The notes under the pieces were generated by a model. It was not told the DNA's origin. It saw only the letters and a list, made by a program, of their open reading frames with translations, and did not search any database. 64,000 nucleotides of DNA, taken from the NCBI GenBank assembly GCA_002839495.1, contig PGYD01000001.1:517-64516 (forward strand), read 5' to 3'. This DNA is from Planctomycetes bacterium HGW-Planctomycetes-1 (GTDB lineage: Bacteria > Planctomycetota > Phycisphaerae > Sedimentisphaerales > UBA12454). A program made the position numbers and the translations under genes. Shown here piece by piece: positions 3,237 through 60,235 of this stretch (within the stretch, counting starts at the first letter, position 1; every line of letters starts with the position of its first letter).

Positions 3237-3383
3237 AAATCCTAATCACTAAATCCTAAATTCTAAACAAATTCAAAATATAAAAAATTAATGTTCAAAA
3301 CGCCGGAAGCGTGAATTTTGGAAATTAGGATTTTGGTTATTAGGATTTGTTTAGGATTTAGATATTAGAATTTGGGATTTTCC
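3237..3383 (+). repeat. Long AT-rich imperfect hairpin built from 9-mers (AAATCCTAA x2 and AAATTCTAA on the left; TTAGGATTT x3 and TTAGAATTT on the right)
   Basis: Read directly. AAATCCTAA at 3237 and 3251, AAATTCTAA at 3258, TTAGGATTT at 3325, 3340 and 3351, TTAGAATTT at 3365. Also AAACAAAT (3265-3272) / ATTTGTTT (3345-3352). Confidence 0.7.
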
Positions 3384-3399
3384 TTTAAGAAAGGTAAAT

Positions 3400-6113: not shown

Positions 6114-6489
6114 CCTGATTAAAAATATCTGGTATAAAACCCACTTCCTCAGCCGTAGCGAGCCCCCTCTGCTTCTTGCGAAGCAAAAGAGGGGGCGTTC
6201 CGAGTTGGGCTGATTAAACATATCAGAACAGAGCTACTGAAGATTAAACGGCTATATAGGCAGTTTAGCCGTAAAAATAACAGGCGATATTGTTTGTCTT
6301 GTTTTTTACGAATTTTCGGCTGGAAAAGTGTATTTTTTTAGAAAAATGTGCATTTTCAGCATTATTATTGTTGATTTTTGATTTTTTTGAGATTATCTTC
6401 CTATGTTTTCGCCTCTGGCGAGGCTGGCGGCGTTAAGTTTCGCAGTGATTGTAAGTTAGTGTGTTTTTGGCTTTTTTTAAAGAGCTGAT

Positions 6490-10242: not shown

Positions 10243-10249
10243 ATAAAAT

Positions 10250-10349
10250 AAATTAAAAGTTAAAATTGAAAATTTAAAATTGCGGAACGGCCTTCGGCCG
10301 CTGAGATTTAGATTTTAATTTTGGGCTTTAAATTTTAAGTTTTAAGTTT
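10250..10349 (+). repeat. Long AT-rich imperfect hairpin with a GC-clamped tip between rplV and rpsC
   Basis: Tip CGGCCTTCGGCCG (10288-10300). Outer arms AAATTAAAAGTTAAAATT (10250-10267) versus AATTTTAAGTTTTAAGTTT (10331-10349) are near-complementary. Confidence 0.6.
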
Positions 10350-10360
10350 AGGGAAAAAAT

Positions 10361-11170
10361 ATGGGTCAAAAGGTACAGCCGATAGGTTTTAGGACGGGCA
10401 TAAGACTGCCGTGGCAGAGCACGTGGTTTGCGCCTAAGGCCAGCTACGGTCAGATGCTCGTCGAAGACCAGCGGGTTCGCAAATATATTGACGATAAGTT
10501 CAATAAGCAGCCGCCTTTCGCAGCGGTGTCGAAAGTGGAAATTGCAAGGACCCGTAACGAAGTGAAAGTTACGCTTCATACGGCCCGGCCGGGAATGGTA
10601 ATTGGGCCGCGCGGGGCGGAAGTTGACAAGCTGCGTCAGGACCTTGAGACGCTGATTAACAGGCAGGTCGCGATTAATGTTATAGAGATAAAAGAACCCG
10701 CACTTGACGCGAGACTTGCGGGCGAAGCGATAGCGGAACAGATGAAAAAGAGAGTTGCTTTCCGCAGGGCGATGAAACAGCAGTGCGAACTTGCTATGCA
10801 GGCCGGCGCCAAGGGAGTGAAAGTTATCTGTTCTGGCAGATTAGGCGGGGCAGAAATGGCTCGTAAGGAAACGCAAATGGAAGGCAGTATTCCGCTGCAT
10901 ACGATAGATGCCGACGTTGATTACGCGGCGGTCGATGCGAGAACGACTTATGGAATTATCGGGATTAAGGTATGGATTTATAAGGGTAAATACGGCACCA
11001 AGTTAGAGCCTAATATGAGCGTTAAAAAGACTCTTCGCCGGCCGCGGTCGGCGAGAAAGACGCCGAGGGCCGAAGCTGCTCCGTCAAGCCGAGCAGCGGC
11101 TGAATCGAAACCGCAGCAGGCGCCTGAAAACAGTTCTGCGGCGAAGACCGAGAAAAAAACTAAAGAGTAA
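10361..11170 (+). CDS. rpsC: 30S ribosomal protein S3 (with a basic/Ala-Pro-rich C-terminal tail)
   Basis: 269 aa, MGQKVQPIGFR... KH-domain region GPRGAEVDKLR. Gene order. Confidence 0.95.
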   Translation: MGQKVQPIGFRTGIRLPWQSTWFAPKASYGQMLVEDQRVRKYIDDKFNKQPPFAAVSKVEIARTRNEVKVTLHTARPGMVIGPRGAEVDKLRQDLETLINRQVAINVIEIKEPALDARLAGEAIAEQMKKRVAFRRAMKQQCELAMQAGAKGVKVICSGRLGGAEMARKETQMEGSIPLHTIDADVDYAAVDARTTYGIIGIKVWIYKGKYGTKLEPNMSVKKTLRRPRSARKTPRAEAAPSSRAAAESKPQQAPENSSAAKTEKKTKE

Positions 11171-22789: not shown

Positions 22790-22806
22790 TATAAGTTGAG
22801 ATTGAT

Positions 22807-22880
<74 letters not shown>

Positions 22881-22891
22881 TTGACATAAGT

Positions 22892-25198: not shown

Positions 25199-26428
25199 AT
25201 GGAGAAACCATTATTTACAAATCCATTCAGACCGGGAGCAGGGCATATGCCGCCGCATTTGGCAGGCAGAATTAAGGAAACACAGGAATTTCAAAGGCTT
25301 CTTGAGCAAACTGTTGTGATAAAAAATCTTGTGTTAACTGGTTTGCGCGGAGTTGGGAAAACAGTTTTGTTAGATACTTTCAAACCAATAGCGGTGAAGG
25401 CCGGATGGCTCTGGGCCGGCACAGATTTATCCGAATCGACAAGTATTAGCGAAGAAACGGTGGCTTTGCGTTTGATTACAGACCTGTCGGTAGTTACATC
25501 AAACATTGTATTTGACAGACAAATAGTTCGTACCTTTGGATTCAAGAGAGATGAAACTCTTATTGATACAACTCTTAATTACGAGATTTTGGTAAACCTT
25601 TTTAAGGATATTCCGGGTCTTATCTCTGATAAGCTGAAAGGTGTTCTTGAATTTGTATGGGATTGTCTAAAGCATCAAAATATCAGAGGGCTGATATTTG
25701 CTTACGACGAAGCGCAAACAATGGCCGACCACACAGAAAAAGAGCAATATCCTCTTTCGCTTTTGCTGGATGTGTTCCAGTCGTTACAGAAAAAAGAAAT
25801 TCCTTTTATGCTGGTGATGGTCGGATTGCCGACATTATTTCCAAAATTGGTTGAAGCACGGACATTTTCAGAAAGAATGTTTAGAGTAGTTTTTCTCGAT
25901 AGATTGAATGAACAGGACAGCAGAGACGCTATTGTCAAGCCTATCCAAGACGAGAACTGTACCGTGAAACTTTTGGAAGAATCAATCAAGCTTATAATAG
26001 ACATATCAGGGGGTTATCCATATTTTATACAATTTATCTGCAAGGAAGTTTATGATATTTTTGTACAGCAGCATACAGGCGGGCAGAATTTAAGAGCACC
26101 TCTTGATGAAATAACACGAAAGCTTGATAATGATTTTTTTGCCGGCAGATGGGCAAGGGCAACCGATAGACAACGTGATTTACTTACGATAATTGCCGGA
26201 TTGCCTAATGCAGATGATGAATTTACAGTGCAGGATGTGGTCGAAGAGGCTAAAAAATCAGAAAAACCATTTAGTGCAAGTCATGTTAGTCAAATGTTGG
26301 TATCATTGACAAATTCGGGTCTTGTTTATAAGAACAGGTACGGCAAGTATTCTTTCGCCGTGCCCTTACTTGTACAATATATATTAAGACAATCTAAAGA
26401 AAAAACTCAACAACAAAAATTATTCTGA
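25199..26428 (+). CDS. Orphan AAA/ORC-Cdc6-like (archaeal-ATPase-type) P-loop ATPase, probable C-terminal winged helix
   Basis: 409 aa. N-terminal NPFRPGAGHMPPHLAGR, Walker A GLRGVGKT, Walker B-like LIFAYDEAQ. Visibly more AT-rich than its neighbours. Confidence 0.8.
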   Translation: MEKPLFTNPFRPGAGHMPPHLAGRIKETQEFQRLLEQTVVIKNLVLTGLRGVGKTVLLDTFKPIAVKAGWLWAGTDLSESTSISEETVALRLITDLSVVTSNIVFDRQIVRTFGFKRDETLIDTTLNYEILVNLFKDIPGLISDKLKGVLEFVWDCLKHQNIRGLIFAYDEAQTMADHTEKEQYPLSLLLDVFQSLQKKEIPFMLVMVGLPTLFPKLVEARTFSERMFRVVFLDRLNEQDSRDAIVKPIQDENCTVKLLEESIKLIIDISGGYPYFIQFICKEVYDIFVQQHTGGQNLRAPLDEITRKLDNDFFAGRWARATDRQRDLLTIIAGLPNADDEFTVQDVVEEAKKSEKPFSASHVSQMLVSLTNSGLVYKNRYGKYSFAVPLLVQYILRQSKEKTQQQKLF

Positions 26429-37782: not shown

Positions 37783-38499
37783 TTATTTCTGCATCTGCGA
37801 AAAATCAGCAGGTATAATCACATCGAACACAGATTTTTTAATAACCTTCGAAGTGTCAATTTGGGATAATTTTATTGTTATCTGTTCATCTTCTGCGGTG
37901 ATTGCCGAAAAAACGAACGGAAGATTGTTGTCAGGACTGATTTTTATTTCGATTTCTTTGTAGGTCTTGAAGAATCTGGAGTTTTCTTTCGGTTTCAAAA
38001 ACAGTGTGTTCTGCACAGCGGTTATATCGAACTGCTCGGCCATCTGATTATTTTTCGCCAGCCCGATAATAGGAAAATAATCCTGCACAAGCTCGAAAGG
38101 TTCAATAGGTTTTTCTTCGGCAAGCCTGTCCGTCGCAGCGGATTTGGCCTGATAGTCGATTTTTGTCAGCTTCATTCCATCGAAGATATAATCTTCTTTA
38201 TAACTCTGCTGTTTGGACTGGTCCTGTTTTAGAGTCAGAAAATTTATTCTTAACGCGGAAAAATCAGCGTCTTTAATATAAAAAATCCTGCCTGTTCTTA
38301 CTGTTTGCGTATCGAATAAAGGCTGGATATGCGTATATTCGATTTTAGCCGAAAGATTTTTGAGATTATCAGCCGCCCGGTTCAGTTTTTCTATGACACC
38401 TTTGATTTGTGCCTGCTCATTCGGTTCTCCTGCCGCCCCGACACTTTGAAAGATTGAAAGGACAATCAATAATATAATTTTATTTTTCATAGGACTCAA
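37783..38499 (-). CDS. LolA-like / outer-membrane lipoprotein-sorting-like secreted protein
   Basis: 238 aa. Signal peptide, then a LolA-like pattern (...NLKNLSAKIEYTHIQPLFDTQTVRTGRIFY...). Overlaps the upstream HAD gene end. Confidence 0.65.
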   Translation of the reverse strand: MSPMKNKIILLIVLSIFQSVGAAGEPNEQAQIKGVIEKLNRAADNLKNLSAKIEYTHIQPLFDTQTVRTGRIFYIKDADFSALRINFLTLKQDQSKQQSYKEDYIFDGMKLTKIDYQAKSAATDRLAEEKPIEPFELVQDYFPIIGLAKNNQMAEQFDITAVQNTLFLKPKENSRFFKTYKEIEIKISPDNNLPFVFSAITAEDEQITIKLSQIDTSKVIKKSVFDVIIPADFSQMQK

Positions 38500-41682: not shown

Positions 41683-42387
41683 ATGGCACAAGAGGCAAAT
41701 CTAAACAAGGTTTTTGACCAGCACGTGAAACTGGAGGAGTTTTTTACAGGCTTTTCCGTAAAAAAGGACAAGCCGCCTCAACAGCCGCAAAAAGATATTA
41801 TCGCCGAGCTTAATCAGCTTGCTGATGAGGTAAAGACTTGCCAAAAATGTGTTCTTGGCACAACTCGCACAAACGCCGTCCCCGGCGAAGGAAATCCCAA
41901 TGCTCAAATAGTCTTTGTCGGTGAAGGACCCGGCGCAGATGAAGATGCACAAGGCAGACCGTTTGTCGGCAGGTCAGGCCAGCTTCTTGATAAAATTATT
42001 ATCGCTATGGGATTAAAGAGAAGCGATGTCTATATATGCAATATTGTAAAATGCAGACCGCCGGAAAATCGCGAGCCAAGACCGGAGGAAATTATAAGCT
42101 GCCTGCCGTTTCTTAAAAGACAGCTCGGCTTAATCAGGCCAAAGGTGATTGTCGCGCTCGGAGCGCCGGCGGCAAAGACGCTTTTGGAGACAAACAAGCC
42201 CATTGGCCAGATTCGAGGCAAATTTTTCGATTATTATTTCGACGATTTTTCGCCGCCCGTCAAGCTTATGCCGACGTATCATCCGGCATATCTCTTGCGG
42301 AATTATTCGCACGAAAATCGTATGAAAGTCTGGGAAGATATGAAAACCGTCTTGGCTGAACTCGGTCTGTCGGTGCCGAAAAGATAA
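41683..42387 (+). CDS. Uracil-DNA glycosylase, family 4 (Fe-S type)
   Basis: ...CQKCVLGTTRTNAVPGEGNPNAQIVFVGEGPGADED..GRPFVG.SGQLL..., ...HPAYLLR. ATG 41683 preferred over the GTG at 41632, which lies inside the repeat arm. Confidence 0.92.
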   Translation: MAQEANLNKVFDQHVKLEEFFTGFSVKKDKPPQQPQKDIIAELNQLADEVKTCQKCVLGTTRTNAVPGEGNPNAQIVFVGEGPGADEDAQGRPFVGRSGQLLDKIIIAMGLKRSDVYICNIVKCRPPENREPRPEEIISCLPFLKRQLGLIRPKVIVALGAPAAKTLLETNKPIGQIRGKFFDYYFDDFSPPVKLMPTYHPAYLLRNYSHENRMKVWEDMKTVLAELGLSVPKR

Positions 42388-42494
42388 AAATTAGCCACAG
42401 AGAACACAGAGGACGTAGAGAAAATAAAATATTTTTAAAGTGGCCCCGAATGAACACGAATTGACACAAATATTTATATTAAGCGAAGAAGAAA

Positions 42495-43175
42495 ATGAAG
42501 TTGCAATATCTTGGAGATTCCAAAGATAGTTTCAAATGGGATTATCATGATTATCTCACAAACAATTTAGGATATCCATGTTTGAATATTCTATTGATGA
42601 TGACTCCTGATGACCAAAGTGATAATGGCAAAACATCTCCTTCAGATTTTCATTCAAAAGTTGAAATAATAAATTTTTGTAAAGAATTGAGGGAATTTCG
42701 CAATCTCAACCTTATTACTGAACTTCCCAATCGAACCGGCTCAAAATATATAGTGAAATTGCATAAGCCAAATATTAATATCACCAATAAAAATAGAACG
42801 TCATATTTTTCCAATATTGCCGCAGAAAAGGATCAGGTAATTTTTTTAGATCCAGACAATGGCTTTCAACCAGATGGGAAATTCAACAAAAAACATGTAT
42901 TATATGGTGAGATAAATTGTTTGCTGGAGAAAATATCAGATAACTCAGTTATTTCAGTTTTTCAGCATTTTCGTCGCAGGAATTTTGGAGAAGATTTCAA
43001 GAAGATAAGAGATCGTTTGTTAAAATATACGCCTTGTTTTGTGGCAGCTATTTATTGGAATTTTCTTATGTTTGTCTGTCTCAGCAAGTCAAAAGAGACA
43101 ATTGGGAAAGTGGTGAAGATAAACGAAAATTATAAAAAAATGGAAATCAATAAAATCAACGTAATCAGTGATTAA
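42495..43175 (+). CDS. Hypothetical protein, AT-rich, tightly linked to addB
   Basis: 226 aa. N-terminal MKLQYLGDSKDSFKWDYHDYL and central VIFLDPDNGF motifs. No family I can name with confidence. Stop lies 6 nt before the addB ATG. Confidence 0.75.
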   Translation: MKLQYLGDSKDSFKWDYHDYLTNNLGYPCLNILLMMTPDDQSDNGKTSPSDFHSKVEIINFCKELREFRNLNLITELPNRTGSKYIVKLHKPNINITNKNRTSYFSNIAAEKDQVIFLDPDNGFQPDGKFNKKHVLYGEINCLLEKISDNSVISVFQHFRRRNFGEDFKKIRDRLLKYTPCFVAAIYWNFLMFVCLSKSKETIGKVVKINENYKKMEINKINVISD

Positions 43176-43181
43176 AAAATT

Positions 43182-46100
43182 ATGGTTCAATTTATATTAG
43201 GCAGAAGCGGGGCGGGAAAGACAACGCTTTGCATAAAGCAGATTATAGATTCTCTGCTTGAAGGCAAAAGCGAACAAAATTTAGTTTTTCTTGTTCCAGA
43301 ACAGGCGACATACCAGGCTGAAAGGGCGATTCTTTCTGATTCGAGAATCAAAGGCTACAGCAGATTGGGCGTCTTGTCTTTTCAAAGGCTCTGCTACCTG
43401 ATTTTCGGCAAGAATCTTGCCGCAAGGCCGCTGACGCAGCAGGGGCGGGATATGATTGTTCATCGCCTGCTTGCCGAAAATGCCGACAAGCTTTCGATTT
43501 TTTCGTCCTCTGCCGCCGCCGGCGTCGCAACCGCCATAGCCGAACTTCAGCAGTTCGGCAAAAGCCCCGACGATATCGAAAAACTTATCGAGCAGATGAA
43601 AGACACTTCGGAATTAACTGTCGGCAAATTGTCCGACATAAATCTGATTTACAAACAGTATCTTGCCTTTGTCGAGGGCAATTTCCTCAATAACGACAAT
43701 CAGTTGAATCTTGCCAAAGATGCCGTCGCCCATACGCCTTTTTTGAAAAATTGTCTGCTGTGGGTTGACGGCTTTGCGGGTTTTACGACTTCGGAATCGC
43801 TTTTACTTGCCGAGCTTTTAAAAGTATCCTCTTCGGCTAAAATAGCTTTGTGTCTTGACGAAATGGAAACTACTCCTGTCGCTAACGCTCCAGGCTCTGT
43901 TGGGGCGGGGATTTTCGAGCCCACCCAAAAAACATATAACGACCTTGGTTCTCTGATTAAAGCGATGAAATTGCCCGTTGAAAAACCTGTTATTTTGCCA
44001 CAGGCAAACCGGTTCAAAAATTCAAAGGCTTTAGCTTATCTTGAAAAAAACATTTTCAGTTTTGAAAATGTTCCGCCTGTTTCCTGTAATAGCGAGGTAA
44101 AAATTACCGCCTGCGCGAAGACGAGGCTTGAAGTCGATTACGCCGCCCGCCAGATTTGCTCTCTTGTCAGGGACAAGGGTTTCCGCTGGCGTGATATAGC
44201 CGTGATTGCATCTGATATCGACCAGTATCGCCATTTCATACAGGCGATTTTCTCTGACTTTAATATTCCTTTCTTTATCGACCGCAGACGGGATTTGCAG
44301 CAGTATCCTGCGGTTGAACTGCTCACAAGCGCTCTCAAAATCGCTACCGACAGGTTTACCACTAACGATGTAATAAATTATCTCAAAAGCGACCTTGCCG
44401 GCGTAAGTCGCGATGAAGTTGACCGGCTCGAAAATTACTGTCTTGCCTTCGGTGTTGATGGCAAAGACTGGCTGGCAGCTGATGTGTGGGACTTTGCGCC
44501 GCCGAATAATGGCTTCGATAATGACCAAATCGATAAAATACGAAATAAAGCGGCGGAAAATCTTTTGCAGTTAAGAGTGCTGTTGCAAAGTGAAAAAAAT
44601 CTTACAGCCGAGCAGTTTTGTCAGGCGATTTTTGTGTTTCTCGACAGTCTCGATGTAAGAGGGCGATTAGCCGACTGGACAAAGGCCGCGATTGAAGCAG
44701 GCAGGCTTGACGAGGCGCAATTGCATCAGCAGTTTTTCGCCCAATTTACGCAATTGATGGACGATTTTGTTTTTATTTTCAAAAATTCCTCTTTTTCATC
44801 AGAACAGTATGCAGCGATCATCAGTTCTGCGTTTTCTCAGATGACGGTAGCCCTGATTCCGCCCGCGCTCGACCAGGTGCTTGTCGGCTCGATTGAGAGA
44901 AGCCGCCATCCCGATTTGAAAGCGGTTTTTCTTCTCGGCGCAACCCAGCAGCAGTTTCCAATTCCGGTTCGTTACGATAATATTCTTAATGATGCCGACC
45001 GCAAGGCCGCTTCTGACAGCGGTTTCAAACTGTCGCGCACCGGCTCGCCCCAGCTTATCGAACGCAGATATCTCGCTTATATCGCCTTTACCCGTCCCAG
45101 TCATTTTTTGTATATCACATATCCGCTCGCCGATGAAAAAGGTGCTAAAATCGAACATAGTTTTCTTGTCAGCGAGTTAAAATCGCTGTTCAGTGATTTG
45201 GAAGAGGGAAAATATTTCGGGAGCTGCGGCTTTGGCGGTTTGTACAATATTTCCGATTTATCTTTACTGCTCGCATCGCGTCTCGGCAGGGATAATTTAT
45301 CGCCTCAGGACGATTTGGACGCCAAATGCAAATGGCTGCTTGATAATCTCTCCCGTGTCATTCCCGCGCAAGCGGGAATCCAAATTAAGTCCGCGATTGA
45401 TTATGAAAATATCGCTCGGCTCGATAATTTGCCTGCCGAAGACGTTCTTTCCGCAAGCGCAACGAAATTGAGAGCTTTCGCAAGCTGTCCTTATCAGTAT
45501 TTCGCAAGACACATTCTTGGGCTTGAGGAAAGACAGGTTTTCGAATTGGAGCCTTTCCGTCAGGGCCTTTTCTATCATAAGGTTCTTGAGTTATTATTTA
45601 ACAGCTTAAAGAATAAAAATCTTACTTTCTCAACCGCCCAAACCGATGTGCTTAATCAGCTTATCGACAAGTCTGTCGAACAGCTTCTTATAGAGGATGC
45701 TTTTCTGAAAAGTTTCAAGACAAGGACCAAACACAACGATTATATTATAAACTCGGCATCGCAAACTATTAAGGATGCCGTCGTTGAATTTGCTCAGATT
45801 GCCTCGGCAGGCGAATTTGAACAGCTTGCCGCTGAAATAGTTTTCGGCAACGGATTTTCTCCGTCTGTGCTTGAAATTAAACTCAAAAACGGCAAAAAAC
45901 TTCACGTCGAAGGCAAAATCGACAGAATCGACACCGTTTCAAAATCAGGCGCAACTTATTGTCTATTAATAGATTATAAAACTTCAGAAACAAAAATTAA
46001 CTGGTCGATGTTTAAGGCAGCTCTCGACTTACAGCTTCCGATATATCTGCTTGCCGTCAGAAATCAGACTATCGGAGAAAGTAAAAATCTTATTCCTTTA

Positions 46101-46547
46101 GGCGCGTTTTATTTTCAAATCCGGACATTTGCCGAGTCATCGGATTTGGATAGCATCGGGAAAAAATCCGAAAAAATTGTCAGAAAACCGAGAGGAATTT
46201 TTAACGGCGAATATTTCCATCTCATCGACGGCAAAACCGAAACCGGCCATAGCCCGTTTTACAGTTTTCAAATAACGAAAGACGGCCAATTCGGCAGATA
46301 TGAAACAAGTTCGCTTTTGACGGATGTGCATTTTTCGAAGGTTTTGTCTTTCGCTGAAAATAAATTAAAAGAGCTTGGCGGCCGGATACTTGCCGGAGAA
46401 ATTGACGTCAGGCCTTACAGGTTAAAAAAACAAACGGCTTGTGCATATTGTCCGTATAAATCGCTTTGCCGGTTCGACTGGCAAATCAACGATTACGCGG
46501 AAATCGAGAAAAAATCTAAAACGGAATTTTTAAATGAATTGGACTAA
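43182..46547 (+). CDS. addB: ATP-dependent helicase/nuclease subunit B (AddB/RexB type, Fe-S nuclease domain)
   Basis: 1121 aa. Walker A GRSGAGKTT, C-terminal PD-(D/E)XK block GKIDRID...LIDYKTSE, and four Cys (CPYQYF ... CAYCPYKSLC). Confidence 0.92.
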   Translation: MVQFILGRSGAGKTTLCIKQIIDSLLEGKSEQNLVFLVPEQATYQAERAILSDSRIKGYSRLGVLSFQRLCYLIFGKNLAARPLTQQGRDMIVHRLLAENADKLSIFSSSAAAGVATAIAELQQFGKSPDDIEKLIEQMKDTSELTVGKLSDINLIYKQYLAFVEGNFLNNDNQLNLAKDAVAHTPFLKNCLLWVDGFAGFTTSESLLLAELLKVSSSAKIALCLDEMETTPVANAPGSVGAGIFEPTQKTYNDLGSLIKAMKLPVEKPVILPQANRFKNSKALAYLEKNIFSFENVPPVSCNSEVKITACAKTRLEVDYAARQICSLVRDKGFRWRDIAVIASDIDQYRHFIQAIFSDFNIPFFIDRRRDLQQYPAVELLTSALKIATDRFTTNDVINYLKSDLAGVSRDEVDRLENYCLAFGVDGKDWLAADVWDFAPPNNGFDNDQIDKIRNKAAENLLQLRVLLQSEKNLTAEQFCQAIFVFLDSLDVRGRLADWTKAAIEAGRLDEAQLHQQFFAQFTQLMDDFVFIFKNSSFSSEQYAAIISSAFSQMTVALIPPALDQVLVGSIERSRHPDLKAVFLLGATQQQFPIPVRYDNILNDADRKAASDSGFKLSRTGSPQLIERRYLAYIAFTRPSHFLYITYPLADEKGAKIEHSFLVSELKSLFSDLEEGKYFGSCGFGGLYNISDLSLLLASRLGRDNLSPQDDLDAKCKWLLDNLSRVIPAQAGIQIKSAIDYENIARLDNLPAEDVLSASATKLRAFASCPYQYFARHILGLEERQVFELEPFRQGLFYHKVLELLFNSLKNKNLTFSTAQTDVLNQLIDKSVEQLLIEDAFLKSFKTRTKHNDYIINSASQTIKDAVVEFAQIASAGEFEQLAAEIVFGNGFSPSVLEIKLKNGKKLHVEGKIDRIDTVSKSGATYCLLIDYKTSETKINWSMFKAALDLQLPIYLLAVRNQTIGESKNLIPLGAFYFQIRTFAESSDLDSIGKKSEKIVRKPRGIFNGEYFHLIDGKTETGHSPFYSFQITKDGQFGRYETSSLLTDVHFSKVLSFAENKLKELGGRILAGEIDVRPYRLKKQTACAYCPYKSLCRFDWQINDYAEIEKKSKTEFLNELD

Positions 46548-49500
46548 AGGTCAAAAGCAGGCAATCGAATCGCAAAGCGGCGACATAACCGTAGCCGCCT
46601 CGGCAGGCACGGGCAAAACTACCGTGCTTTCGCACCGCGCCGTCAGGATTCTCGGCCTGCCTGAGCTGTGCCCGGACGTTTCGGATATCCTTGTTTTGAC
46701 CTTTACCGAAGCGGCCGCGGGCGAAATGAAGCTGCGAATCGCGCAATATCTGAAAGATAAAGCCAATAAAAATATTTATCTTCGCAGACATCTTTTGATG
46801 CTCGACGGCGCAGATATCAGCACCGTTCATTCGTTTTGCAAACGTATTATCAGCAGGCATTTTCATCGTCTCGGCCTTAATCCGGCTTTCAGGGTGATGG
46901 ACGAGGACGAAAGCAAACTGATAAAAGCCGAAATTCTTCAGCAGATAATCGAAGAGGCATGGGACGATTTTCCGCAGGGTATGACTCATCTCTTGGACGG
47001 CAGGGCGGTATCGAACCCATCGCATAATTTTCTTAACTGTGTCATAGACGTCAGTAATTTTCTCGATACGGTCATATCCCGCCCAAATTGGTTCGACAGA
47101 GCGCTCGTTTACAATGACGCGGCAATTTCCGCCGCCTCCGATGCCGTTAAAAACCAAAAACAGTTTATTCTCGACAATCTAAAAACCTTCAAAGAGCAAT
47201 TTAAATGGTCGCTGAGCCTCGATGAAAAAATCGCAAACGGCCACTGGAAAGAGCAGATTGAAAAACAATGTATTCCTGTAATTGCTTGCGCCGTTGAACT
47301 TTTAGAAAAAGATGATTTAAAGAATTTTATCAAGCATTTAAATAGTTTTGAAAAATTTAGATGGAATAGAAGACCAAAAGAATTTTCCGACGAACTAAAG
47401 AAGCTTGTTTTATCAGCCGCGGATAAAGCGAAAGAAGGCTTTAAGAATCTTAACGCATTTGCCGTGCTTAATCCCGATTATACCGCTCTTGTTGCTGGCG
47501 CCTGTTCCGTTCAGACGAAAGTTTTGATTGAGCTTGTCAAAAAATTCGACCTTGCTTATCAGACCAGAAAACAGCAGCTAAACTGTGTGGACTTTGCCGA
47601 CCTTGAAAAGTATATGCTCAAGCTGCTTTCTGAAAACGGCGATGTCGCTCCCGCCAAGCCGTCGGATATCGCTTTGCAGCTGCGGAAAAGCTATAAATAT
47701 ATTTTTGTTGACGAATATCAGGATATAAATCCGGTTCAGCAGAGAATCATCGACCTGCTGAGCGGCTCGGCTAAAGTTTTCGTTGTCGGCGATGTCAAAC
47801 AGAGCATTTATGCCTGGCGGGGCGCCGATTGCGGCCTGTTTGTCCAGCGGCTGGGCAAAACCGGAATCGACGAGTCTAAATCCCGTGTCGATTTGAATGA
47901 AAATTTCCGTTCCCGTCCCGGTGTTTTGAATTTCGTCAATGAAATTTTCTCACGAATTATGCTCGAATCCATCGCCGCGGTAGATTACGACGAAAATGCC
48001 GCTTTAAAGCCTTTTAACGCTTCATCAGATAAATCTGCGAAACCCGATGTGGAACTGCTCATTGTTGACGATGACCCCGCAGAGGAAAATGACGACGACG
48101 AAGAACAGCAAACCGATGGTATTTCTGCCGATGCCGTAAATCGCAGGGCATTGACGGTTGCCGAGCGGATAAAAGAGCTTGTCGAGGTTGAAAAATTTGA
48201 AGTTTACGACAAAGACATCTCCGCTTTTCGTCCCTGCCGCTGGAATGATTTTGTGATTTTAACACGGGACTTTAAGCATCGTGCAAATAATTACGTCCAA
48301 ATCCTCCGTTGTGCCAATATACCGGTTGTAAGCGACAGCTCCGCGGGCTATTTTGCGGCTACCGAAATCAACGATATGCTTTCGTTATTGCAGGTTCTTG
48401 ACAATCCCCGTCAGGATATTCCTCTTGCCTCTGTTTTGAGAAGTCCGATTTTCAGCCTTTCCGACACGCAGCTTGCGCAGATAAAATCGCATAAAAATTC
48501 CGAATCGGATTTTTATTCACTGCTCGAATCTGTTGCAGAAAAATCCGACGTTCAAGACCTGCAAAAAACAGTTTCTGATATTTTACGTCGCCTTGACGAT
48601 TGGCGGACTCTGGCTCGGCGAGGTTCGTTAGCTGATTTAATCTGGCAGATTTATTCGCAGACCGGTCTTTTGTCATTTGTTTCCGCTCTGCCCGGCGGTT
48701 CACAAAGACACGCCAATTTGCTAAAGCTTCACCAGCGGGCGATACAGTTTGAGAATTTTGCGTCCAGCTTTAACGTCATTTCCCTGTCCAGATTTGTCAA
48801 TTTCCTGCAAAAGCTGCTCGAATCCGGCGGCGACTGGGCTCCTGCCGAGCCGGACAGTTCCGCTTCGGATGCCGTGCGGGTAATGAGCGTTCATAAAAGC
48901 AAAGGTCTGGAATTTCCAATTGTGATTTTGGCAGAAACCAACAGGGAATTTCGCCTCGGCTCTCACATCGGCGATTGCATAACGGATAATCAGGCGACAA
49001 TAGGACTTAGAATAATAGACGAAAACAGCGGCACAAAACTGCCTTCGCTCACCTGGCAGGTAATCAAAGAAAAACAAATCAGACAGAGCCTTGCCGAGGA
49101 GATGAGGATTTTGTACGTGGCGATGACACGGGCGAAAGACAAGTTGATTGTGTCCGGTGCCGCTGAATCGAAGCGCTGTGTCTCTTTGTTGAGCAGTGCC
49201 GCACTTTGCGATTTGGGAAAACTGCCTCGCTTCTTAATCGAATCCGCCAAAAGCGAACTTGACTGGATTTTACTGTCCCTTGCCGAATATGAAAAACTGC
49301 AAACTCATTTTAAATTGCCGATACAGGTCGATAGCCGCAATGATAACATATTCGATTTGATAATATATCAGCCGGACGAGATTTTAAAGATTAGTTCAAG
49401 ATTCTTGAAGAAACTTCCGGTCGGCAGATATGAAACAATAAAGACGCCTTTGCCTGACAAAACTTTGCTTGAGAATATCACTAAAAATTTAAACTGGCAG

Positions 49501-50148
49501 TATCCGCTTAAAGACTGTGCCTCGATAAAAACCAAGCAGTCTGTTACTTCCATTGTGCATCAGGAAGAGTTTGCTGAAGCTGACCGGAGTTTTTCGTTCG
49601 ATTCTTTTGAAAAACTTACCGGCCGCGGCGACAGCCTCGTCATCGGCAGCGCAACCCATCTCGTTATCAAAAATATAGATTTAACCGACACTGTCGATAA
49701 AGACAAAATCTGTCAAGCTGTAAATCGTTTGCTTAAAAATGGTTATACAACGAAACAGGCCGCTGAAAAAATCGACATTTCAGCTATTTTAAAGTTTTTC
49801 AGCAGCGATTTAGGCAGGCTTGTAACGGACAGTAAAAATATCGTGTTAAGAGAATGGCCTTTCACTTATGCTGTTTCAGCGGCGGAGTTGTATCCTGATT
49901 TGAAGAATTGTACCGAAGAAAAAATAATCATTCAGGGCATTGTCGATATGCTGATTAAGACGCCGAGCGGTTTAGTTGTAATAGATTTCAAGACAGACCG
50001 TATTGATTCTTCACAGCTTAAGCAGAGAAGCGAGCATTACGCGCCGCAGTTAAAATGGTACTGCAAAGCGGCAGCGGAGATTCTTAATATTAAAAATGTT
50101 ACAGGCTGGCTGTATTTCCTTACTCCGGCAATTGCAGTGAAGATTTGA
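46534..50148 (+). CDS. addA: ATP-dependent helicase/nuclease subunit A (UvrD-like helicase plus RecB-type nuclease)
   Basis: 1204 aa. AAGTGKTTVL, FVDEYQDINP, ...VMSVHKSKGLEFP..., C-terminal GIVDML...VIDFKTD nuclease motif. Overlaps addB by 14 nt. Confidence 0.93.
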   Translation: MNWTKGQKQAIESQSGDITVAASAGTGKTTVLSHRAVRILGLPELCPDVSDILVLTFTEAAAGEMKLRIAQYLKDKANKNIYLRRHLLMLDGADISTVHSFCKRIISRHFHRLGLNPAFRVMDEDESKLIKAEILQQIIEEAWDDFPQGMTHLLDGRAVSNPSHNFLNCVIDVSNFLDTVISRPNWFDRALVYNDAAISAASDAVKNQKQFILDNLKTFKEQFKWSLSLDEKIANGHWKEQIEKQCIPVIACAVELLEKDDLKNFIKHLNSFEKFRWNRRPKEFSDELKKLVLSAADKAKEGFKNLNAFAVLNPDYTALVAGACSVQTKVLIELVKKFDLAYQTRKQQLNCVDFADLEKYMLKLLSENGDVAPAKPSDIALQLRKSYKYIFVDEYQDINPVQQRIIDLLSGSAKVFVVGDVKQSIYAWRGADCGLFVQRLGKTGIDESKSRVDLNENFRSRPGVLNFVNEIFSRIMLESIAAVDYDENAALKPFNASSDKSAKPDVELLIVDDDPAEENDDDEEQQTDGISADAVNRRALTVAERIKELVEVEKFEVYDKDISAFRPCRWNDFVILTRDFKHRANNYVQILRCANIPVVSDSSAGYFAATEINDMLSLLQVLDNPRQDIPLASVLRSPIFSLSDTQLAQIKSHKNSESDFYSLLESVAEKSDVQDLQKTVSDILRRLDDWRTLARRGSLADLIWQIYSQTGLLSFVSALPGGSQRHANLLKLHQRAIQFENFASSFNVISLSRFVNFLQKLLESGGDWAPAEPDSSASDAVRVMSVHKSKGLEFPIVILAETNREFRLGSHIGDCITDNQATIGLRIIDENSGTKLPSLTWQVIKEKQIRQSLAEEMRILYVAMTRAKDKLIVSGAAESKRCVSLLSSAALCDLGKLPRFLIESAKSELDWILLSLAEYEKLQTHFKLPIQVDSRNDNIFDLIIYQPDEILKISSRFLKKLPVGRYETIKTPLPDKTLLENITKNLNWQYPLKDCASIKTKQSVTSIVHQEEFAEADRSFSFDSFEKLTGRGDSLVIGSATHLVIKNIDLTDTVDKDKICQAVNRLLKNGYTTKQAAEKIDISAILKFFSSDLGRLVTDSKNIVLREWPFTYAVSAAELYPDLKNCTEEKIIIQGIVDMLIKTPSGLVVIDFKTDRIDSSQLKQRSEHYAPQLKWYCKAAAEILNIKNVTGWLYFLTPAIAVKI

Positions 50149-55993: not shown

Positions 55994-57364
55994 TTAGTCG
56001 GAATAGTTTTCCAAGGGCTGATTTGGGTCAGAGTATTTTGGACGCTCCCATGGCGGCCAAAAAACAATGTCATCAGTGCCCCGTTTGCCGCTATCGTCTG
56101 TAAAGTTTTCGCCAACGCTATATATTTTAAAACCCTCTTCTTCAACATCGTAAACAAGCGGCTTATCACTATACGGGTCTGCCGGCAACTCCTTCAAATA
56201 ACCCGCTCTTATAAGTTCGTCAAAATTATTCGGCAGTCGGCCTTTATCCTGTTGAAATCTTAAAATCGCAATCGTTGCCACTAATGCTTTTAACTGTGCT
56301 TGAGTATCATAAAAATCATAATAATCTTTTCTATAAGTACCTGCATATACTAGCAAAAATAAAGAATCAAATCGAGGTCGATATAAATTTTCAAAGAAAT
56401 TAGGTTTACGCTGATTAAGTTGCCAAGGCGTCATAATGAATGCATTTTGCACTTGTTCATAATACGAATCAATCTGGCCTTTTACCTCTTTCTGTGTGGG
56501 ACCTGCCAAGAAAAATTTTATTGTTCCCCAAGAACCTACCACACATGAAGGATCATATCCGGAAAAATCTTTTATGCCTGTCCAAGATAAACGGCCGGAA
56601 CCATCTGATTTATAAACATATATTCTTTGAAGAATATCGTAGGTAAATAATTTATCTGCTGCAAGGTCTGGATGTACTTTAGAAGTATCAAATAAAATCT
56701 CAAGGTCTTTCTGGAACAAACCTAATGTTGATTCAGGAACATCTATTTTTTTAAGGATTAACAATGTTGCCCGTGTAACTCGTTGTAAGCTCTGCACGTT
56801 GTCTCGGAAAACAATTATGAAACGTGAGGTATCGCATTTTTGAAAGACTGCGCAATAATACGTCAGTAAATTTTCAAAAGCATCGGAATATTTACCATTA
56901 ACGGCATTTACCTTCGCATCCCACAAGATTGCGTCATAAAGCTCTCCCAAACCATAGCCATATAGCTCAAAAATCTGTATGCCTCTTAAATCATTATCTA
57001 AAGCCCGACTTTCAATCCAATAATATGGCTTTTTGCTTGCTTCTTTAAATTTTTGAAGGCTCTCTTTGTTCGCGGTAAGCCAACTTTGCAATAAATTTTC
57101 TTCTGCTTGATTCAGGTCTAAAGGCCATTCCGTAGATATTTTTGCAAGTTTCAACGGCTTTTTGAAAAAAGTATTAACAGCCCCACTATATAAATTTTGT
57201 GCATTCTGATTTGGATCAAAATCGATCAGCTTAGAAATTTTGTTATATTCTGCGAGATAATCTATAGTAATTTTAGGTTCACCTCGTAACATAAAAAAAA
57301 CAATTACGGTGACAGTTAAAATCACCATTAGAAATATCAACATGATTTTTTTAATTTTTTTCAT
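55994..57364 (-). CDS. Membrane-anchored protein with GspG(pseudopilin)-like C-terminal domain, function unknown
   Basis: 456 aa. One N-terminal TM but no prepilin cleavage motif. C-terminus ...RLPNNFDELIRAGYLKELPADPYSDKPLVYDVEEEGFKIYSVGENFTDDSG... resembles the globular domain of T2SS GspG. AT-rich. Confidence 0.7.
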   Translation of the reverse strand: MKKIKKIMLIFLMVILTVTVIVFFMLRGEPKITIDYLAEYNKISKLIDFDPNQNAQNLYSGAVNTFFKKPLKLAKISTEWPLDLNQAEENLLQSWLTANKESLQKFKEASKKPYYWIESRALDNDLRGIQIFELYGYGLGELYDAILWDAKVNAVNGKYSDAFENLLTYYCAVFQKCDTSRFIIVFRDNVQSLQRVTRATLLILKKIDVPESTLGLFQKDLEILFDTSKVHPDLAADKLFTYDILQRIYVYKSDGSGRLSWTGIKDFSGYDPSCVVGSWGTIKFFLAGPTQKEVKGQIDSYYEQVQNAFIMTPWQLNQRKPNFFENLYRPRFDSLFLLVYAGTYRKDYYDFYDTQAQLKALVATIAILRFQQDKGRLPNNFDELIRAGYLKELPADPYSDKPLVYDVEEEGFKIYSVGENFTDDSGKRGTDDIVFWPPWERPKYSDPNQPLENYSD

Positions 57365-57376
57365 AACACACTTTCT

Positions 57377-60235
57377 TTAATCCATATTTATAAATCTAAT
57401 ATTCAAATCACCAAAAGCAGCTACTTTTCCACTTATCCAAGTACCATTGTTTACTTCTATTTGCGCCCGTGTAAATGCCTGATAATAGGTGTTTGCTCCA
57501 TATAAACCAAAACCATCTGGATCGCCCCAAAAGAATGTTGTCCATGAGCAAAAATCGGAATCATTAGAAGTTTGAATTAGGGAGTTCCAACTTATATACA
57601 ATTTATCAAAAGTAGGAAAATCAAATTCCATCCACGCAGCTGCCATATCACCATATAACCCATTAAGGCATACATCGATCCAAACAATTTTAAACTTATC
57701 AGTGCCGCCGAATCCAAGAGATGCCATTGAATGAACTTTCGTGTTGTTATCCCATCCTCCGCCAAGCGGTTCAGAAATATCAAGATATGAGACAACTTTA
57801 TGCCTCTCAGAAAGTTTAAAATATGTACGTTGGTCTACATACTCTCCAGGGAGAGAACTTGCACCTCTGGAAACTACATAAACGTAACAGACAGTTGGTT
57901 TGGATAATACTTGAGCAAAATTTTCCCATGTACAATTATCCTTATATAATATTATATATGGTATCGCCATTGTTTCACAACTACTCACAATAGCGGCAAC
58001 AGCTCTCTTTCGTGATTTTGCAGAATCTTCTGGATATGGAAAGTAATCCCATGCGGTTGGCAAAATTATTGCAAACTGGTAAGGTTCATCAGGGTTATAC
58101 CTTGCGGCTACTGCTCTTTCCCAAACGGGTTCCCACAATGAATCTGAGTTTAGCAAATCAAAATCTAATGAATTTGAATCCGACAATCGCAAATCCAATA
58201 ATTCAAGCCCGCCTATTTCCTGCTCAATACTTAAATCATATATCTGGCCTGCAAGAACATTGCCGGGAATATTAATATCCAAATTCCCGCTTGTTTCCTG
58301 CGACCAAATCATAGTTTCATCCCATTTAGACAGTTTGACCTGTAAATTGTTTTCTGTTTCGCTAAGTCCCAAAAGTCGCATCGGTTTATTCGGCTCATAA
58401 GTATCGTTTATACTCAAGCAATGTAGCGGATTATTAAAATCAACAGCCAAATTTTCAGAAACCGTAATAAGACCGTTATGGTCAATAATAGCCGCTTTAA
58501 GCAAATGATTGCCGTTAAGATGGGAAGGTGTATTTATTGTTATTCCCGGGTTGCCTTCATCCGCTTTATAATCTGTTTCACCCATCAACTGACCGTCCAT
58601 AAAAATAAATGCCGTTGATGTTGAATAAGGACAGCCGCCAATACTTACTCCAATTTCTCCCTTTAAATTATTAACATCCCCACTCACACTAACCGAAATT
58701 GCAGGATTACCTTCTGCTGTCTGCTGCCACTCATTCGCCAGAATTGCAAAATCCTCAAAATTCACTATATCATCCTTATTCAAATCCGCTCTGCTGTCAT
58801 ACAGCCGCCCATCCACCTCTTTTCGCCACTGCCGGGCAAAATCAGCAAAATCAATAAAATCAAACGGACTGAGCCAATATTCCGCAACCACCATCAGGTC
58901 TCCATAATCAACCCTGCCGCTGCTATCGTAATCCCACCACCATACTTTATACGCCTCATCATAATCGAAAAGCCAGAAATCCGCAAAGAAAGCCAAATCA
59001 TTATAATCGACCCGCAGATTATTATCAAAATCCGCCTGTAATGTTGTCGTCCCTGCGTTTGAATAATTCCAGTTAGAATAATGATAACCTATATCAATTA
59101 TATTGCTGTCCGGCATGCTGTTCAAATTCGTGGTTGTGCCGATAAGCGATGTTTCTTCAACATATTCCAAACCTGCATCTATGAACGGGCATCCATCGAC
59201 AAGACGCCATCCTGCTTCATCGAAAGGATTTTCTGTTGCCTCAACTGGATTATCCTCATCAATTCCCCCATTATTATTTTCATAATTATAATAATAACCT
59301 GTATTGGAAACAATCGCATACATATAGCCATCAACAAGATTCAGCCCGCATTCCGCTGATTCACTGATAATATTATTAACGAGCCTTGTCAGTCCTATAT
59401 CGTTCTCATCTTCTGTCCCATGTACTATAATTCCAAAATCCTGGTAATCGCACGTGTTGTTCTCGATTAGAATAGAGCTTTCGGCGTTGCCAACTCCTGC
59501 CTCAGATTCCATATATATTTCTATCGCGCAAGTATAATAATAATCATTGAAACTATAATAAATCAGATTGTTTATAATGTCAGTATGGCAAGTTCCATAT
59601 TCTCTTATGCCCAAAATATTGTAAAACAAATAATTGTTTTGTATGGGCGTATCAAGCCGAATATTTTCGGTTAATATTGCGATAGAAGCAAATTCTATAT
59701 TACTATAAATTATCTTTGTGGCCGGCGAAGCAGTCTCCTGTACCTCAATTGCGCAATAATAATCACCCGAACCGTAACCATCTTCGGATGTATAAGTAAT
59801 TGGATTATTCGGCGTACCCGCCGAAATTAAAGCCCCACCATTATTTACAATCAGTCCACCATAATAATCAAAATAAATCACCGCCCCCGGCTCGATTACA
59901 AGCAATGCCTGAACATTGACATTGTCTGTAATATGATATTCATTATTCGCAGTCCAAATCTGATTTGTGGTAATATCAGAGTTTATCTCAATAATATTAA
60001 GCCCCGCCTGCATTTGCTCAATGTTATTATCTGCCGTTTCTGATATGATATTATCTATCGCATTTTCTTTTGCCCGTGATTGGTAAGCAATCCTGTTGAA
60101 TATCTTAATGCCGCTCTCTGAACTTGCCGGACAGCGGAGCAGATGTTTTTCCGGTTTTTGTAGTGCGGATACCGCATAGATGTTGCTGGCAATTAAAACT
60201 ATCCAAAGAATTGAAATCCTTGCTCCTGTTCTCAT
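57377..60235 (-). CDS. Large secreted protein: parallel beta-helix region, three dockerin/EF-hand-like repeats, Ig-like middle, unknown alpha/beta C-terminal domain
   Basis: 952 aa with signal peptide. NN-rich beta-helix turns. DFDNNLRVDYNDLAFFADFW, DYDSSGRVDYGDLMVVAEYW and DLNKDDIVNFEDFAILANEW map to about nt 58727-59035. AT-rich. Confidence 0.8.
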   Translation of the reverse strand: MRTGARISILWIVLIASNIYAVSALQKPEKHLLRCPASSESGIKIFNRIAYQSRAKENAIDNIISETADNNIEQMQAGLNIIEINSDITTNQIWTANNEYHITDNVNVQALLVIEPGAVIYFDYYGGLIVNNGGALISAGTPNNPITYTSEDGYGSGDYYCAIEVQETASPATKIIYSNIEFASIAILTENIRLDTPIQNNYLFYNILGIREYGTCHTDIINNLIYYSFNDYYYTCAIEIYMESEAGVGNAESSILIENNTCDYQDFGIIVHGTEDENDIGLTRLVNNIISESAECGLNLVDGYMYAIVSNTGYYYNYENNNGGIDEDNPVEATENPFDEAGWRLVDGCPFIDAGLEYVEETSLIGTTTNLNSMPDSNIIDIGYHYSNWNYSNAGTTTLQADFDNNLRVDYNDLAFFADFWLFDYDEAYKVWWWDYDSSGRVDYGDLMVVAEYWLSPFDFIDFADFARQWRKEVDGRLYDSRADLNKDDIVNFEDFAILANEWQQTAEGNPAISVSVSGDVNNLKGEIGVSIGGCPYSTSTAFIFMDGQLMGETDYKADEGNPGITINTPSHLNGNHLLKAAIIDHNGLITVSENLAVDFNNPLHCLSINDTYEPNKPMRLLGLSETENNLQVKLSKWDETMIWSQETSGNLDINIPGNVLAGQIYDLSIEQEIGGLELLDLRLSDSNSLDFDLLNSDSLWEPVWERAVAARYNPDEPYQFAIILPTAWDYFPYPEDSAKSRKRAVAAIVSSCETMAIPYIILYKDNCTWENFAQVLSKPTVCYVYVVSRGASSLPGEYVDQRTYFKLSERHKVVSYLDISEPLGGGWDNNTKVHSMASLGFGGTDKFKIVWIDVCLNGLYGDMAAAWMEFDFPTFDKLYISWNSLIQTSNDSDFCSWTTFFWGDPDGFGLYGANTYYQAFTRAQIEVNNGTWISGKVAAFGDLNIRFINMD

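Follow-up and report, generated by a model that had tools for sequence, protein, structure and literature searches.

An AT-rich gene between udg and addB of a planctomycete belongs to an unnamed, widespread protein family and occupies a hypervariable slot

The closest described counterparts of the gene analyzed here are, for its setting, the variable hotspots between conserved core genes that hold defense and accessory genes, known from defense islands and from the integration sites of prophages or satellites, and, for its predicted product, RlmJ, the 23S rRNA m6A2030 methyltransferase (PF04378; PDB 4BLU-series, 6QE5, 7P9I and 7P9O). In RlmJ, N12 and H9 touch the target adenine, D15 positions K18, and K18 pairs with D164 of the 164-DPPY-167 motif; activity requires Y4, H6, K18 and D164, and the helical subdomain that follows β1 was termed novel among methyltransferases by its authors (PMC3814359). 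The gene in question, referred to together with its protein as X, is an open reading frame (ORF) of 226 amino acids (aa) in a 64-kb stretch of the genome of Planctomycetes bacterium HGW-Planctomycetes-1, the whole of which is termed the window, and is located between udg and the addBA genes. Like known hotspots, this junction (the slot) has fixed core flanks (udg and addB), mutually exclusive AT-rich cargos that include a known defense system (a type VI retron), empty-site alleles and a content that turns over faster than lineages diverge. It differs from them in its size (0 to 2.5 kb, one to three genes), in the absence of an integrase or tRNA at the site, and in cargo that is always co-oriented and probably inside an operon; only some of the cargos are recognizable defense genes. 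Our best explanation, to which we assign a probability of roughly 60%, is that X is a horizontally acquired cargo of a hypervariable slot and not a part of AddAB, and that it encodes an RlmJ-like, base-directed enzyme, probably related to genetic conflict. Confidence is high for the part of this explanation that makes X a mobile cargo unrelated to AddAB and low to moderate for the proposed enzymology. X and its neighbors are arranged in the window as follows:

41683..42387, + strand, udg, family-4 uracil-DNA glycosylase (PF03167, E = 4.8e-42; TIGR00758, E = 1.6e-66), left border of the slot
42495..43175, + strand, X, ATG start, 226 aa, TAA stop at 43173-43175
43182..46547, + strand, addB (PF21445, E = 1.4e-64; PF12705, E = 3.8e-37; TIGR02773, E = 1e-207), right border of the slot
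46534..50148, + strand, addA (TIGR02785, E = 9e-253, 842 bits versus a cutoff of 708)

The X stop codon is separated from the addB ATG (43182) by 6 nt (AAAATT), and addB overlaps addA by 14 nt. The start of udg is an ATG; an alternative GTG at 41632 is likewise open. An earlier note on this DNA (the original prediction) had described the 226-aa ORF, the 6-nt gap and the 14-nt overlap, with a family-4 enzyme upstream and AddB and AddA downstream, and the ORF coordinates and the Pfam and NCBIfam matches agree with that description.

Relatives of the slot were recovered with a probe for the AddB N terminus, which yielded ten metagenomic loci with the order gdh-udg-slot-addB and AddB N termini that were 70 to 85% identical (compared loci are designated L and homologous proteins P). 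The upstream gdh-udg order was common to all 13 related loci. X was absent from all ten recovered relatives (10 of the 13 syntenic genomes), some of them closely related to the window, with AddB N termini that were 80 to 85% identical. The slot was empty in L096, L103 and L104, with 23 to 83 nt between the udg stop and the addB start, and other loci contained different cargos:

L097, an uncharacterized 92-aa protein
L098, YcxB-like and TPR proteins
L099, a type VI retron and a 157-aa PD-(D/E)XK-like ORF (slot, L099:1521-4000)
L100 and L101, a pair of 178/181-aa and 164/170-aa proteins
L102, a zinc-ribbon membrane protein
L105, the 165-aa member of the L100/L101 pair, alone

The retron of L099 (HTH_VI at 2247-2552, PADLOC E = 3.7e-20; RT_VI at 2509-3522, E = 3.8e-67) is situated directly before addBA, in the position of X. 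Every slot cargo was on the + strand and had a G+C content of 0.30 to 0.36 versus 0.44 to 0.47 for the flanks. In a neighbor-joining tree built from AddB sequences, the three genomes bearing X were interleaved with genomes that had an empty slot or another cargo, indicating that the content of the slot turns over faster than the lineages diverge. The udg/addB junction is a hypervariable hotspot in this planctomycete (Sedimentisphaerales-like) lineage and, with its empty, retron, nuclease and X alleles, provides a compact natural system for integrase-free swapping of accessory and defense genes.

One cargo of ~165 aa was recurrent (L100:3297-3791, L101:3035-3547, L105:3430-3927 and possibly L099:3512-3985). 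It exhibited a restriction-endonuclease-like signature (…D-H-T-G-[IV]-D-I-[IV]-A…G-I-[ST]-V-K-S-R), with no Pfam match and a weak PADLOC match to CARF_PDDEXK (E = 4.5e-4).

Comparison with the empty-site locus L103 allowed the boundaries of the insertion to be placed in the window:

42388..42432, + strand, native udg-proximal spacer (window 42355-42432 aligns with L103 3885-3959)
~42433..43141, + strand, inserted AT-rich cargo segment of ~709 nt, containing the region upstream of X and X codons 1 to ~216 (from the flank alignments to L103)
42444..42461, + strand, left arm of an inverted repeat, CCCCGAATGAACACGAAT, the right arm being missing in the window
42451..42480, + strand, sigma-70-like promoter match TGAACA-18-TATATT, a consensus match only, 15 nt before the X start
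43144..43181, + strand, native addB-proximal spacer with three 9-nt direct repeats, AAATCAATA AAATCAACG TAATCAGTG, then ATTAAAAAATT

The G+C content of the cargo segment was 0.31 to 0.33 versus 0.44 to 0.50 for its flanks, and the insertion breakpoints lie within a stretch rich in A (AAAAAAATAT in L103), alignable to both sides. On the addB side, window 43134-43211 aligns with L103 3950-4030, and three copies of AAATCA[G/A][T/C][G/A] followed by ATTAAAAAATT-ATG are present as non-coding sequence before addB in L099, L101, L102, L103 and L105. In the window, this native spacer encodes the last ~11 codons of X and the stop and forms the 6-nt gap; the tail of the protein, KKMEINKINVISD, departs past the invariant Y213 from the usual ending of the family. 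As the 3′ end of X is derived from the spacer, the 6-nt gap represents the native addB leader and not an adaptation to co-translation. The translational coupling to addB suggested in the original prediction was, therefore, not upheld: the junction was inherited, and the same spacer precedes addB in an empty-site genome lacking X. The locus serves as a cautionary case in which apparent functional coupling to a known operon is the scar of a cargo insertion.

A single udg-X-addBA transcription unit appears plausible, since a search of the + strand from udg to addB detected no terminator-like site. The region of the promoter match upstream of X is kept in L001 and L003, but five promoter-like sites were found versus 5.2 expected by chance, and hence the match at 42451-42480 is no evidence of function. 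Rfam and tRNA scans detected no RNA elements in the slot.

The tandem AAATCAGYG-like 9-nt repeats (window 43144-43170), directly upstream of addB, are kept in six genomes and could act as a regulatory element or binding site governing the expression of addBA. Three tandem CACAGAG-type heptamers (42396-42420) follow the udg stop immediately; these are kept in the window, L102 and L103 and occur nowhere else in the window.

In L001, X is bracketed by the two arms of a perfect 25-bp inverted repeat, consisting of AAATTAACCACGAATGAACACGAAT and the complementary sequence (L001:7941-7965 and 8710-8734), the left arm of which abuts the udg stop while the right arm ends 7 nt before the addB ATG. The pair is imperfect in L003, the left arm alone is found in the window and L105, and the right arm alone is found in L100; in L100 and L105 the arms border cargo other than X. 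The AAATTAACCACGAATGAACACGAAT motif was absent from all remaining X loci, and a significant inverted repeat flanked X at 1 of 79 loci. Because other cargos are bordered by the repeat too, while the remaining X loci lack it, the repeat is a property of the slot rather than part of a transposon carrying X. An element bounded by terminal inverted repeats was rejected on these grounds, the repeat being lineage specific to the slot and flanking different cargos also. The repeat may be the remains of a palindrome that received cargo at its center; no intact, uninterrupted palindrome allele was found among the compared loci.

The distribution of the family was scanned using one genome per species. 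X relatives were detected in at least 239 species genomes from more than 10 phyla, with carriers among the Planctomycetota, Gamma-, Beta-, Alpha- and Deltaproteobacteria-type genomes, Acidobacteriota, Nitrospirota, Verrucomicrobiota, Elusimicrobiota, Actinomycetota, Chloroflexota-type metagenome-assembled genomes (MAGs) and others. Nearly all of the carriers are environmental MAGs, and Geotalea sp. SG265 is the sole isolate in the 239-genome set. All-against-all clustering of 3,229 flanking ORFs revealed no conserved partner gene, the largest clusters being generic SDR and ABC ATPase proteins, and a Pfam and PADLOC census of 146 immediate neighbors returned 156 Pfam families, each present in at most four loci. 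Within the set of 79 X loci, addAB adjoined X only in the window lineage (the window, L001/L015, L002 and L003) and at none of the others. The original prediction had offered two readings, an accessory or modulator of AddAB and a selfish or defense gene, and had taken homologues unlinked to addAB as decisive against the former. Outside one lineage the homologues have no such linkage, and the selfish or defense alternative is the better of the two.

Certain other loci provided a more defined context. On a 463-kb contig (L008:7546-8675), X overlaps an upstream ORF of 152 aa by 4 nt within an island containing phage-type integrase, HTH_17, MazG-like and Y1 transposase genes, and the pair of the 152-aa ORF and X recurs on L009. 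In L031, L054 and L079 (MAGs labeled Pirellulales or Sedimentisphaerales), X occupies a different, conserved position (at ~10001-10650 or 5552-6205). Its orientation there is convergent relative to an RluD-type pseudouridine synthase, a TrkA-like gene lies upstream, and vertical retention is thereby shown for a second lineage as well.

The base composition of X was distinctive. Its G+C content (0.311) and third-position G+C content (GC3; 0.300) were the lowest among the 47 window ORFs of at least 150 aa, for which the means were 0.470 (z = −3.6 for X) and 0.500 (z = −3.1), in line with an estimate made earlier by eye of a G+C content of about one-third and A/T-ending codons. The G+C content of X was at least 0.05 below that of the flanks in 55 of 80 homologous loci, with values of, for example, 0.357 versus 0.608 in L010 and 0.378 versus 0.613 in L018. 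The foreign origin proposed in the same note was thus borne out by AT-richness relative to the flanks, here and in the 55 loci, by a patchy presence across phyla and by absence from the ten syntenic relatives. Among the window, L001 and L003, the synonymous divergence (dS) was 0.66 to 0.72 for X, 0.79 to 0.88 for udg and 1.1 to 1.3 for addB. As the divergence of X is comparable to that of the flanks, X has resided in the slot since before the split of these three genomes. Despite a dS of ~0.7, the GC3 of X is still 0.29 to 0.33 while that of the flanks is 0.40 to 0.55, indicating no compositional amelioration (window 42495-43175, L001:8001-8693 and L003:8001-8675). Selection for AT-richness or repeated replacement of the allele may be responsible.

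A word-indexed search detected X homologues in 573 clusters at E values of ≤1e-3, and an exhaustive search yielded 449 family representatives at 50% identity, 179 of them below 1e-10. Members are ~220 aa in length, are always annotated as hypothetical and have no precomputed Pfam domain, even in a subfamily that is ~26% identical. Scans of X against Pfam, NCBIfam, PADLOC and PHROGs produced no match, a Lar-like PHROG (E = 0.18) being at chance level, and Pfam and NCBIfam scans of 40 family members produced scattered chance matches only. Searches of PDB sequences with the single sequence and with two profiles gave no meaningful match; CopM (E = 0.016) was rejected as a low-complexity helical match. 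The statement that X could not be placed in a named family thus held for Pfam, NCBIfam (including TcmP and RlmJ), PADLOC and PDB sequences. The ratio of nonsynonymous to synonymous divergence relative to two syntenic orthologues was 0.19 to 0.24, and by this measure X is a functional gene under purifying selection. Judged from these sequence comparisons, X is the founder of an unnamed, conserved protein family. The ATG at 42495 is the correct start, because MKxQY is kept at the N terminus throughout the family; one public gene call (P0001, 224 aa) begins two codons later. The original prediction had drawn attention to two motifs:

42507..42557, + strand, N-terminal motif YLGDSKDSFKWDYHDYL, X residues 5-21, start of helix 9-25
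42837..42866, + strand, VIFLDPDNGF, X residues 115-124, strand β4 (DSSP strand 114-118) and a D-P-[D/C/N/S]-x-G-[F/L/I] loop

Both are present, and no other blocks of the family are as strongly conserved. Among 53 diverse members, residues D8, D11, F13, M35, P120 and G123 were invariant, and G7, K14, D16, T37, R101, Y104, D119, D121, H134, Q157, F193 and Y213 were conserved in at least 90%, with G7, K14, D16, D119 and D121 each reaching at least 92%. Within the β4 loop, D119 was present in 52 of the 53 sequences and P120 and G123 in all 53. The family signature consists of an N-terminal GDxxDxFK followed by DPDxG, KH and QH, a conservation pattern that looks like that of an enzyme active site.

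An AlphaFold2 model of X, built on a 120-sequence alignment, had a mean predicted local distance difference test score (pLDDT) of 91.8 and a predicted template modeling score of 0.91. When this model was compared with the PDB by Foldseek, all 50 matches listed were methyltransferases or aminopropyltransferases, with probabilities of up to 0.99. Among the matches listed, the lowest E value was that of spermidine synthase 3o4f (2.6e-4) and the highest template modeling (TM) scores were those of Escherichia coli RlmJ (6qe5_A, 0.47; 7p9i_B, 0.46). A second, independent model of the distant member P0253 (~26% identical; pLDDT, 87) had RlmJ 7p9o as its top match by both E value (7e-4) and TM score (0.46). 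Viral folds (BFVD) gave generic methyltransferase-like matches only, at E values of >1e-3. At the level of predicted fold, X can be placed in the class-I superfamily of S-adenosylmethionine (SAM)-dependent methyltransferases. The elements of the model are, in order, the N-terminal helix, β1, a helical insert, one strand, β4, a helix, β5 (152-158 by DSSP), a helix (αE) and a hairpin of β6 (182-188) and β7 (191-197), an order that agrees with the topology of class-I methyltransferases. Helices at residues 48-81 lie between β1 and the next strand, and this insert directly after β1 appears to have the position of the helical subdomain of RlmJ (TM score, <0.5).

The conserved residues of X cluster after β1, β4 and β5 and on the N-terminal helix. 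The N terminus, Y5-x-G7-D8-x-x-D11-x-F13-K14-[W/Y]15, is the proposed counterpart of motif X of RlmJ (H9, G11, N12, D15, K18 and H19), with D11, K14 and W/Y15, all of them conserved, being plausible counterparts of D15, K18 and H19. D119-P120, at the end of β4, has the position of methyltransferase motif IV (LIDPPYE, RlmJ 161-167). In the models, a substrate-side network of the RlmJ type seems to have been kept. Other parts of RlmJ are missing. Y4 and H6 have no equivalents in X, which begins four residues closer to the G-[N/D] pair, and no conserved counterparts were found for the cofactor residues H42/G44 (motif I), S100, E118 (motif II) or D143-G144 (motif III). Motif IV of X is D-P-[D/C/N/S]-x-G-[F/L/I], the second proline and the aromatic residue of DPP(Y/F) being absent in 53 of 53 members. 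Neither PF04378 nor any other methyltransferase hidden Markov model (HMM) matched at E values of ≤1 among the 40 members scanned. A reading of DPD as a DxD metal site (GT-A, Toprim or HAD-like) was rejected because position 121 tolerates C, N or S, the motif has the motif IV location and the fold matches are to methyltransferases.

In summary terms, the likeness to RlmJ comprises a class-I α/β fold (best TM scores of 0.46 to 0.47), an N-terminal helix with [H/Y]-x-G-[N/D]-x-x-D-x-[L/F]-K-[H/W], a β4 strand ending in a D-P loop, an apparently corresponding helical insertion after β1 and an acidic pocket. The differences are in length (226 aa versus 280 aa for RlmJ), in the lack of the Y4/H6 tail, in DPDxG versus DPPY, in one strand fewer between β1 and β4 of the model, and in status, rlmJ being a housekeeping gene and X an AT-rich accessory gene of patchy occurrence. 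X thus resembles RlmJ in its fold and, in part, in the layout of its active site, yet it is outside the RlmJ and TcmP families. Of the RlmJ/TcmP-like layout recognized in the original prediction, the RlmJ half stood, with RlmJ the best match of two AlphaFold2 models and an equivalent G-[ND]-x-x-D-x-x-K helix and β4 D-P loop. The TcmP half did not: a similar N-terminal helix and DP loop had been put forward for TcmP (three-Cys-motif partner, TIGR04474), and both would be small proteins of mobile regions with a Rossmann fold, but 0 of 40 family members matched TIGR04474 at E values of ≤1, and no three-Cys partner gene recurred at the 79 loci. There is also a likeness to the (D/N)PP(Y/F/W) amino-methyltransferases (N6-adenine/N4-cytosine) in the catalytic logic suggested by the invariant Asp-Pro at the end of β4 paired with a lysine from the N-terminal region, and to orphan DNA methyltransferases in a stand-alone, horizontally transferred gene with occasional nuclease fusions, as in type IIG enzymes. 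X differs from these in lacking the second proline, an aromatic residue at +3, an FxGxG/GxGxG motif I, a methyltransferase HMM match and a target-recognition domain. With an RlmJ-like pocket, no cofactor motifs and a high-confidence model, the family is a concrete candidate in the search for new chemistry of nucleic-acid modification or of conflict.

In rare members the X domain is fused to further domains, which, as read from protein sequences in which gene-call artifacts are possible, hint at a role in conflict. P0122 and P0123 have C-terminal R-N-x3-H (HEPN-like) domains after the X domain, one of them with a weak DUF4145 match (E = 0.018) that falls short of the Pfam cutoff. DUF4145, a HEPN RNase family, is characteristic of defense fusions (PMC3710099) and forms the effector in the RAZR system (PMC13017515). 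In P0230, a PD-(D/E)XK-like signature is seen in the fused C-terminal domain, which matches the PADLOC defense candidate PDC-S11 (E = 1.1e-10). None of the fused domains recurred as a separate neighbor of solo X.

Additional C-terminal domains were observed in P0180 and P0141, and P0185 and P0138 share an extra C-terminal domain that is 31% identical. A zinc ribbon is among the fused domains, and P0141 has, by eye only, a possible MGMT/ATL-like DNA-binding tail.

A mechanism can be proposed for X as an enzyme of this kind. The gene would probably be transcribed with addBA, either because transcription continues past udg or because it starts in the region preceding X, and would encode a divergent derivative of the RlmJ/amino-methyltransferase class-I type. 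By analogy with RlmJ, D11 would position K14, K14 would pair with D119 of the β4 D-P loop, and D8 would replace the base-contacting N12. The protein may then flip out and bind a nucleic-acid base or a nucleotide in the acidic pocket and modify it chemically, either with SAM bound in an unusual manner or by other chemistry. In this role X would be an "orphan" enzyme, working alone in modification or conflict and belonging to the kind that passes from genome to genome.

Several observations weigh against this explanation. The proposed activity is deduced from fold, conserved residues, fusions and context. The structural similarity is modest (TM scores of <0.5, 9 to 14% identity), and the mapping of X residues onto RlmJ was made from motif order and secondary structure and not by superposition. 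When the family was compared with RlmJ by hhalign, the probability was 0.4% with a single sequence and 0.2% with a 13-sequence profile, the RlmJ profile being low in diversity (enterobacterial sequences, 83 to 99% identical); only the VIFLDPDNGF segment was aligned, to RlmJ 157-172, without significance. On the cofactor side, X has no glycine-rich motif I, the loop after β1 being M-[L/M]-T-x-[D/N]-D with no glycine until position 45. No acidic residue is conserved where β2 ends, position 88, before [I/L]89, being variable, and a single multi-residue strand is present between β1 and β4 of the model, leaving the motif III strand without a counterpart. Owing to these missing SAM-side motifs, SAM-dependent methyl transfer by X is doubtful. 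As regards conflict, no PADLOC-DB v2 model matched X at E values of ≤10, defense genes were only sporadic among X neighbors, and the TPR, YcxB-like and zinc-ribbon membrane cargos of the slot are not recognizable as defense genes. As regards mobility, tblastn found no X match in GenBank phages or PLSDB plasmids, and one IMG/VR contig contained an X relative. Lastly, the residence of X in the slot has been long (dS of ~0.7, like the flanks), and hence a lineage-specific benefit tied to the neighboring genes is conceivable.

Other explanations were weighed against the same data. The hints of conflict could be taken further, with X as a one-gene immunity protein against phages or plasmids, or else a toxin-like effector, in a defense hotspot, its methyltransferase-like domain sensing or attacking foreign nucleic acid or depleting a nucleotide or cofactor. 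We give a fairly low probability to this explanation, which overlaps the preferred one and does not exclude it. It is favored by the type VI retron (L099) and the PD-(D/E)XK-like proteins (L099, L100, L101 and L105) found in the same slot, by the HEPN-like and PDC-S11 fusions of rare members, by certain toxin-antitoxin, restriction-modification (RM) or Abi neighbors (ParDE, DUF2442/DUF2283, type IIG RM and an AbiEii-like AAA_21), by the integrase-bearing island of L008 and by the strong signature of horizontal transfer; however, X has no PADLOC match, its neighbors are mostly housekeeping genes and an island context is inconsistent. A more doubtful proposal is that X is a true SAM-dependent orphan methyltransferase, very far diverged from RlmJ but related to it, with an exocyclic amine of rRNA, tRNA or DNA as its target. 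RlmJ is indeed the best structural neighbor in two independent models, the motif X-like residues and the D-P of motif IV are invariant, and ribosome-biogenesis genes occur among the neighbors (RsgA and RluA-type pseudouridine synthase, each in 4 of 146). The D-P-D-x-G in place of (D/N)PP(Y/F/W), the missing counterparts of the RlmJ cofactor residues and the failure of PF04378 and other methyltransferase HMMs to match argue in the opposite direction, and three of the pseudouridine synthase neighbors come from a single syntenic lineage. The most far-reaching reading, which we consider rather unlikely, would make X the founder of a new, widespread RlmJ-derived family with its base-flipping, substrate-side active site kept and its SAM half replaced, acting in single-gene immunity or counter-immunity, and the junction a miniature defense hotspot co-expressed with addBA. 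The double-strand-break processing machine is a common target of phages, and, in this reading, the retron, the nucleases and X would be cargos placed beside it.

Very little probability attaches to the possibility that X is the mobility gene of a small element of its own, transposase- or homing-like, that inserted itself into a udg/addB palindrome. A single-gene insertion without an integrase, the perfect 25-bp repeat around X in L001 and the many different chromosomal positions of X across phyla would fit such an element. The same repeat, however, borders the cargo of L100 and L105 and is a property of the slot, 78 of the 79 X loci have no significant flanking inverted repeat, and the methyltransferase-like fold is unlike that of a known transposase, recombinase or homing endonuclease. 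The leading idea of the original prediction, an AddAB accessory or modulator co-translated with AddB, fares slightly worse still and has been largely refuted by the distribution. The 6-nt distance from X to addB, with no terminator between, and the maintenance of X here under purifying selection in three genomes, at a divergence like that of the flanks, are in its favor. They are set against the absence of X from 10 of 13 syntenic genomes, close relatives included, the lack of addAB beside any X locus outside the same lineage, and the fact that the 6-nt junction is native spacer that is present without X also.

Elsewhere in the window, the sole Rfam and ARAGORN match was a tRNA-Met (CAT) at 22806-22881, which is unrelated to the slot. 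Two further ORFs, at 25199-26428 (+ strand; G+C, 0.39) and 37783-38490 (− strand; G+C, 0.38), were clearly below the window mean. Adjacent low-G+C genes were also observed on the − strand at 55994-57364 and 57377-60235 (456 and 952 aa; G+C, 0.36 and 0.39; GC3, 0.30 and 0.33). Their products are apparently secreted or surface proteins, and the two genes form a second compositionally foreign patch of the window.

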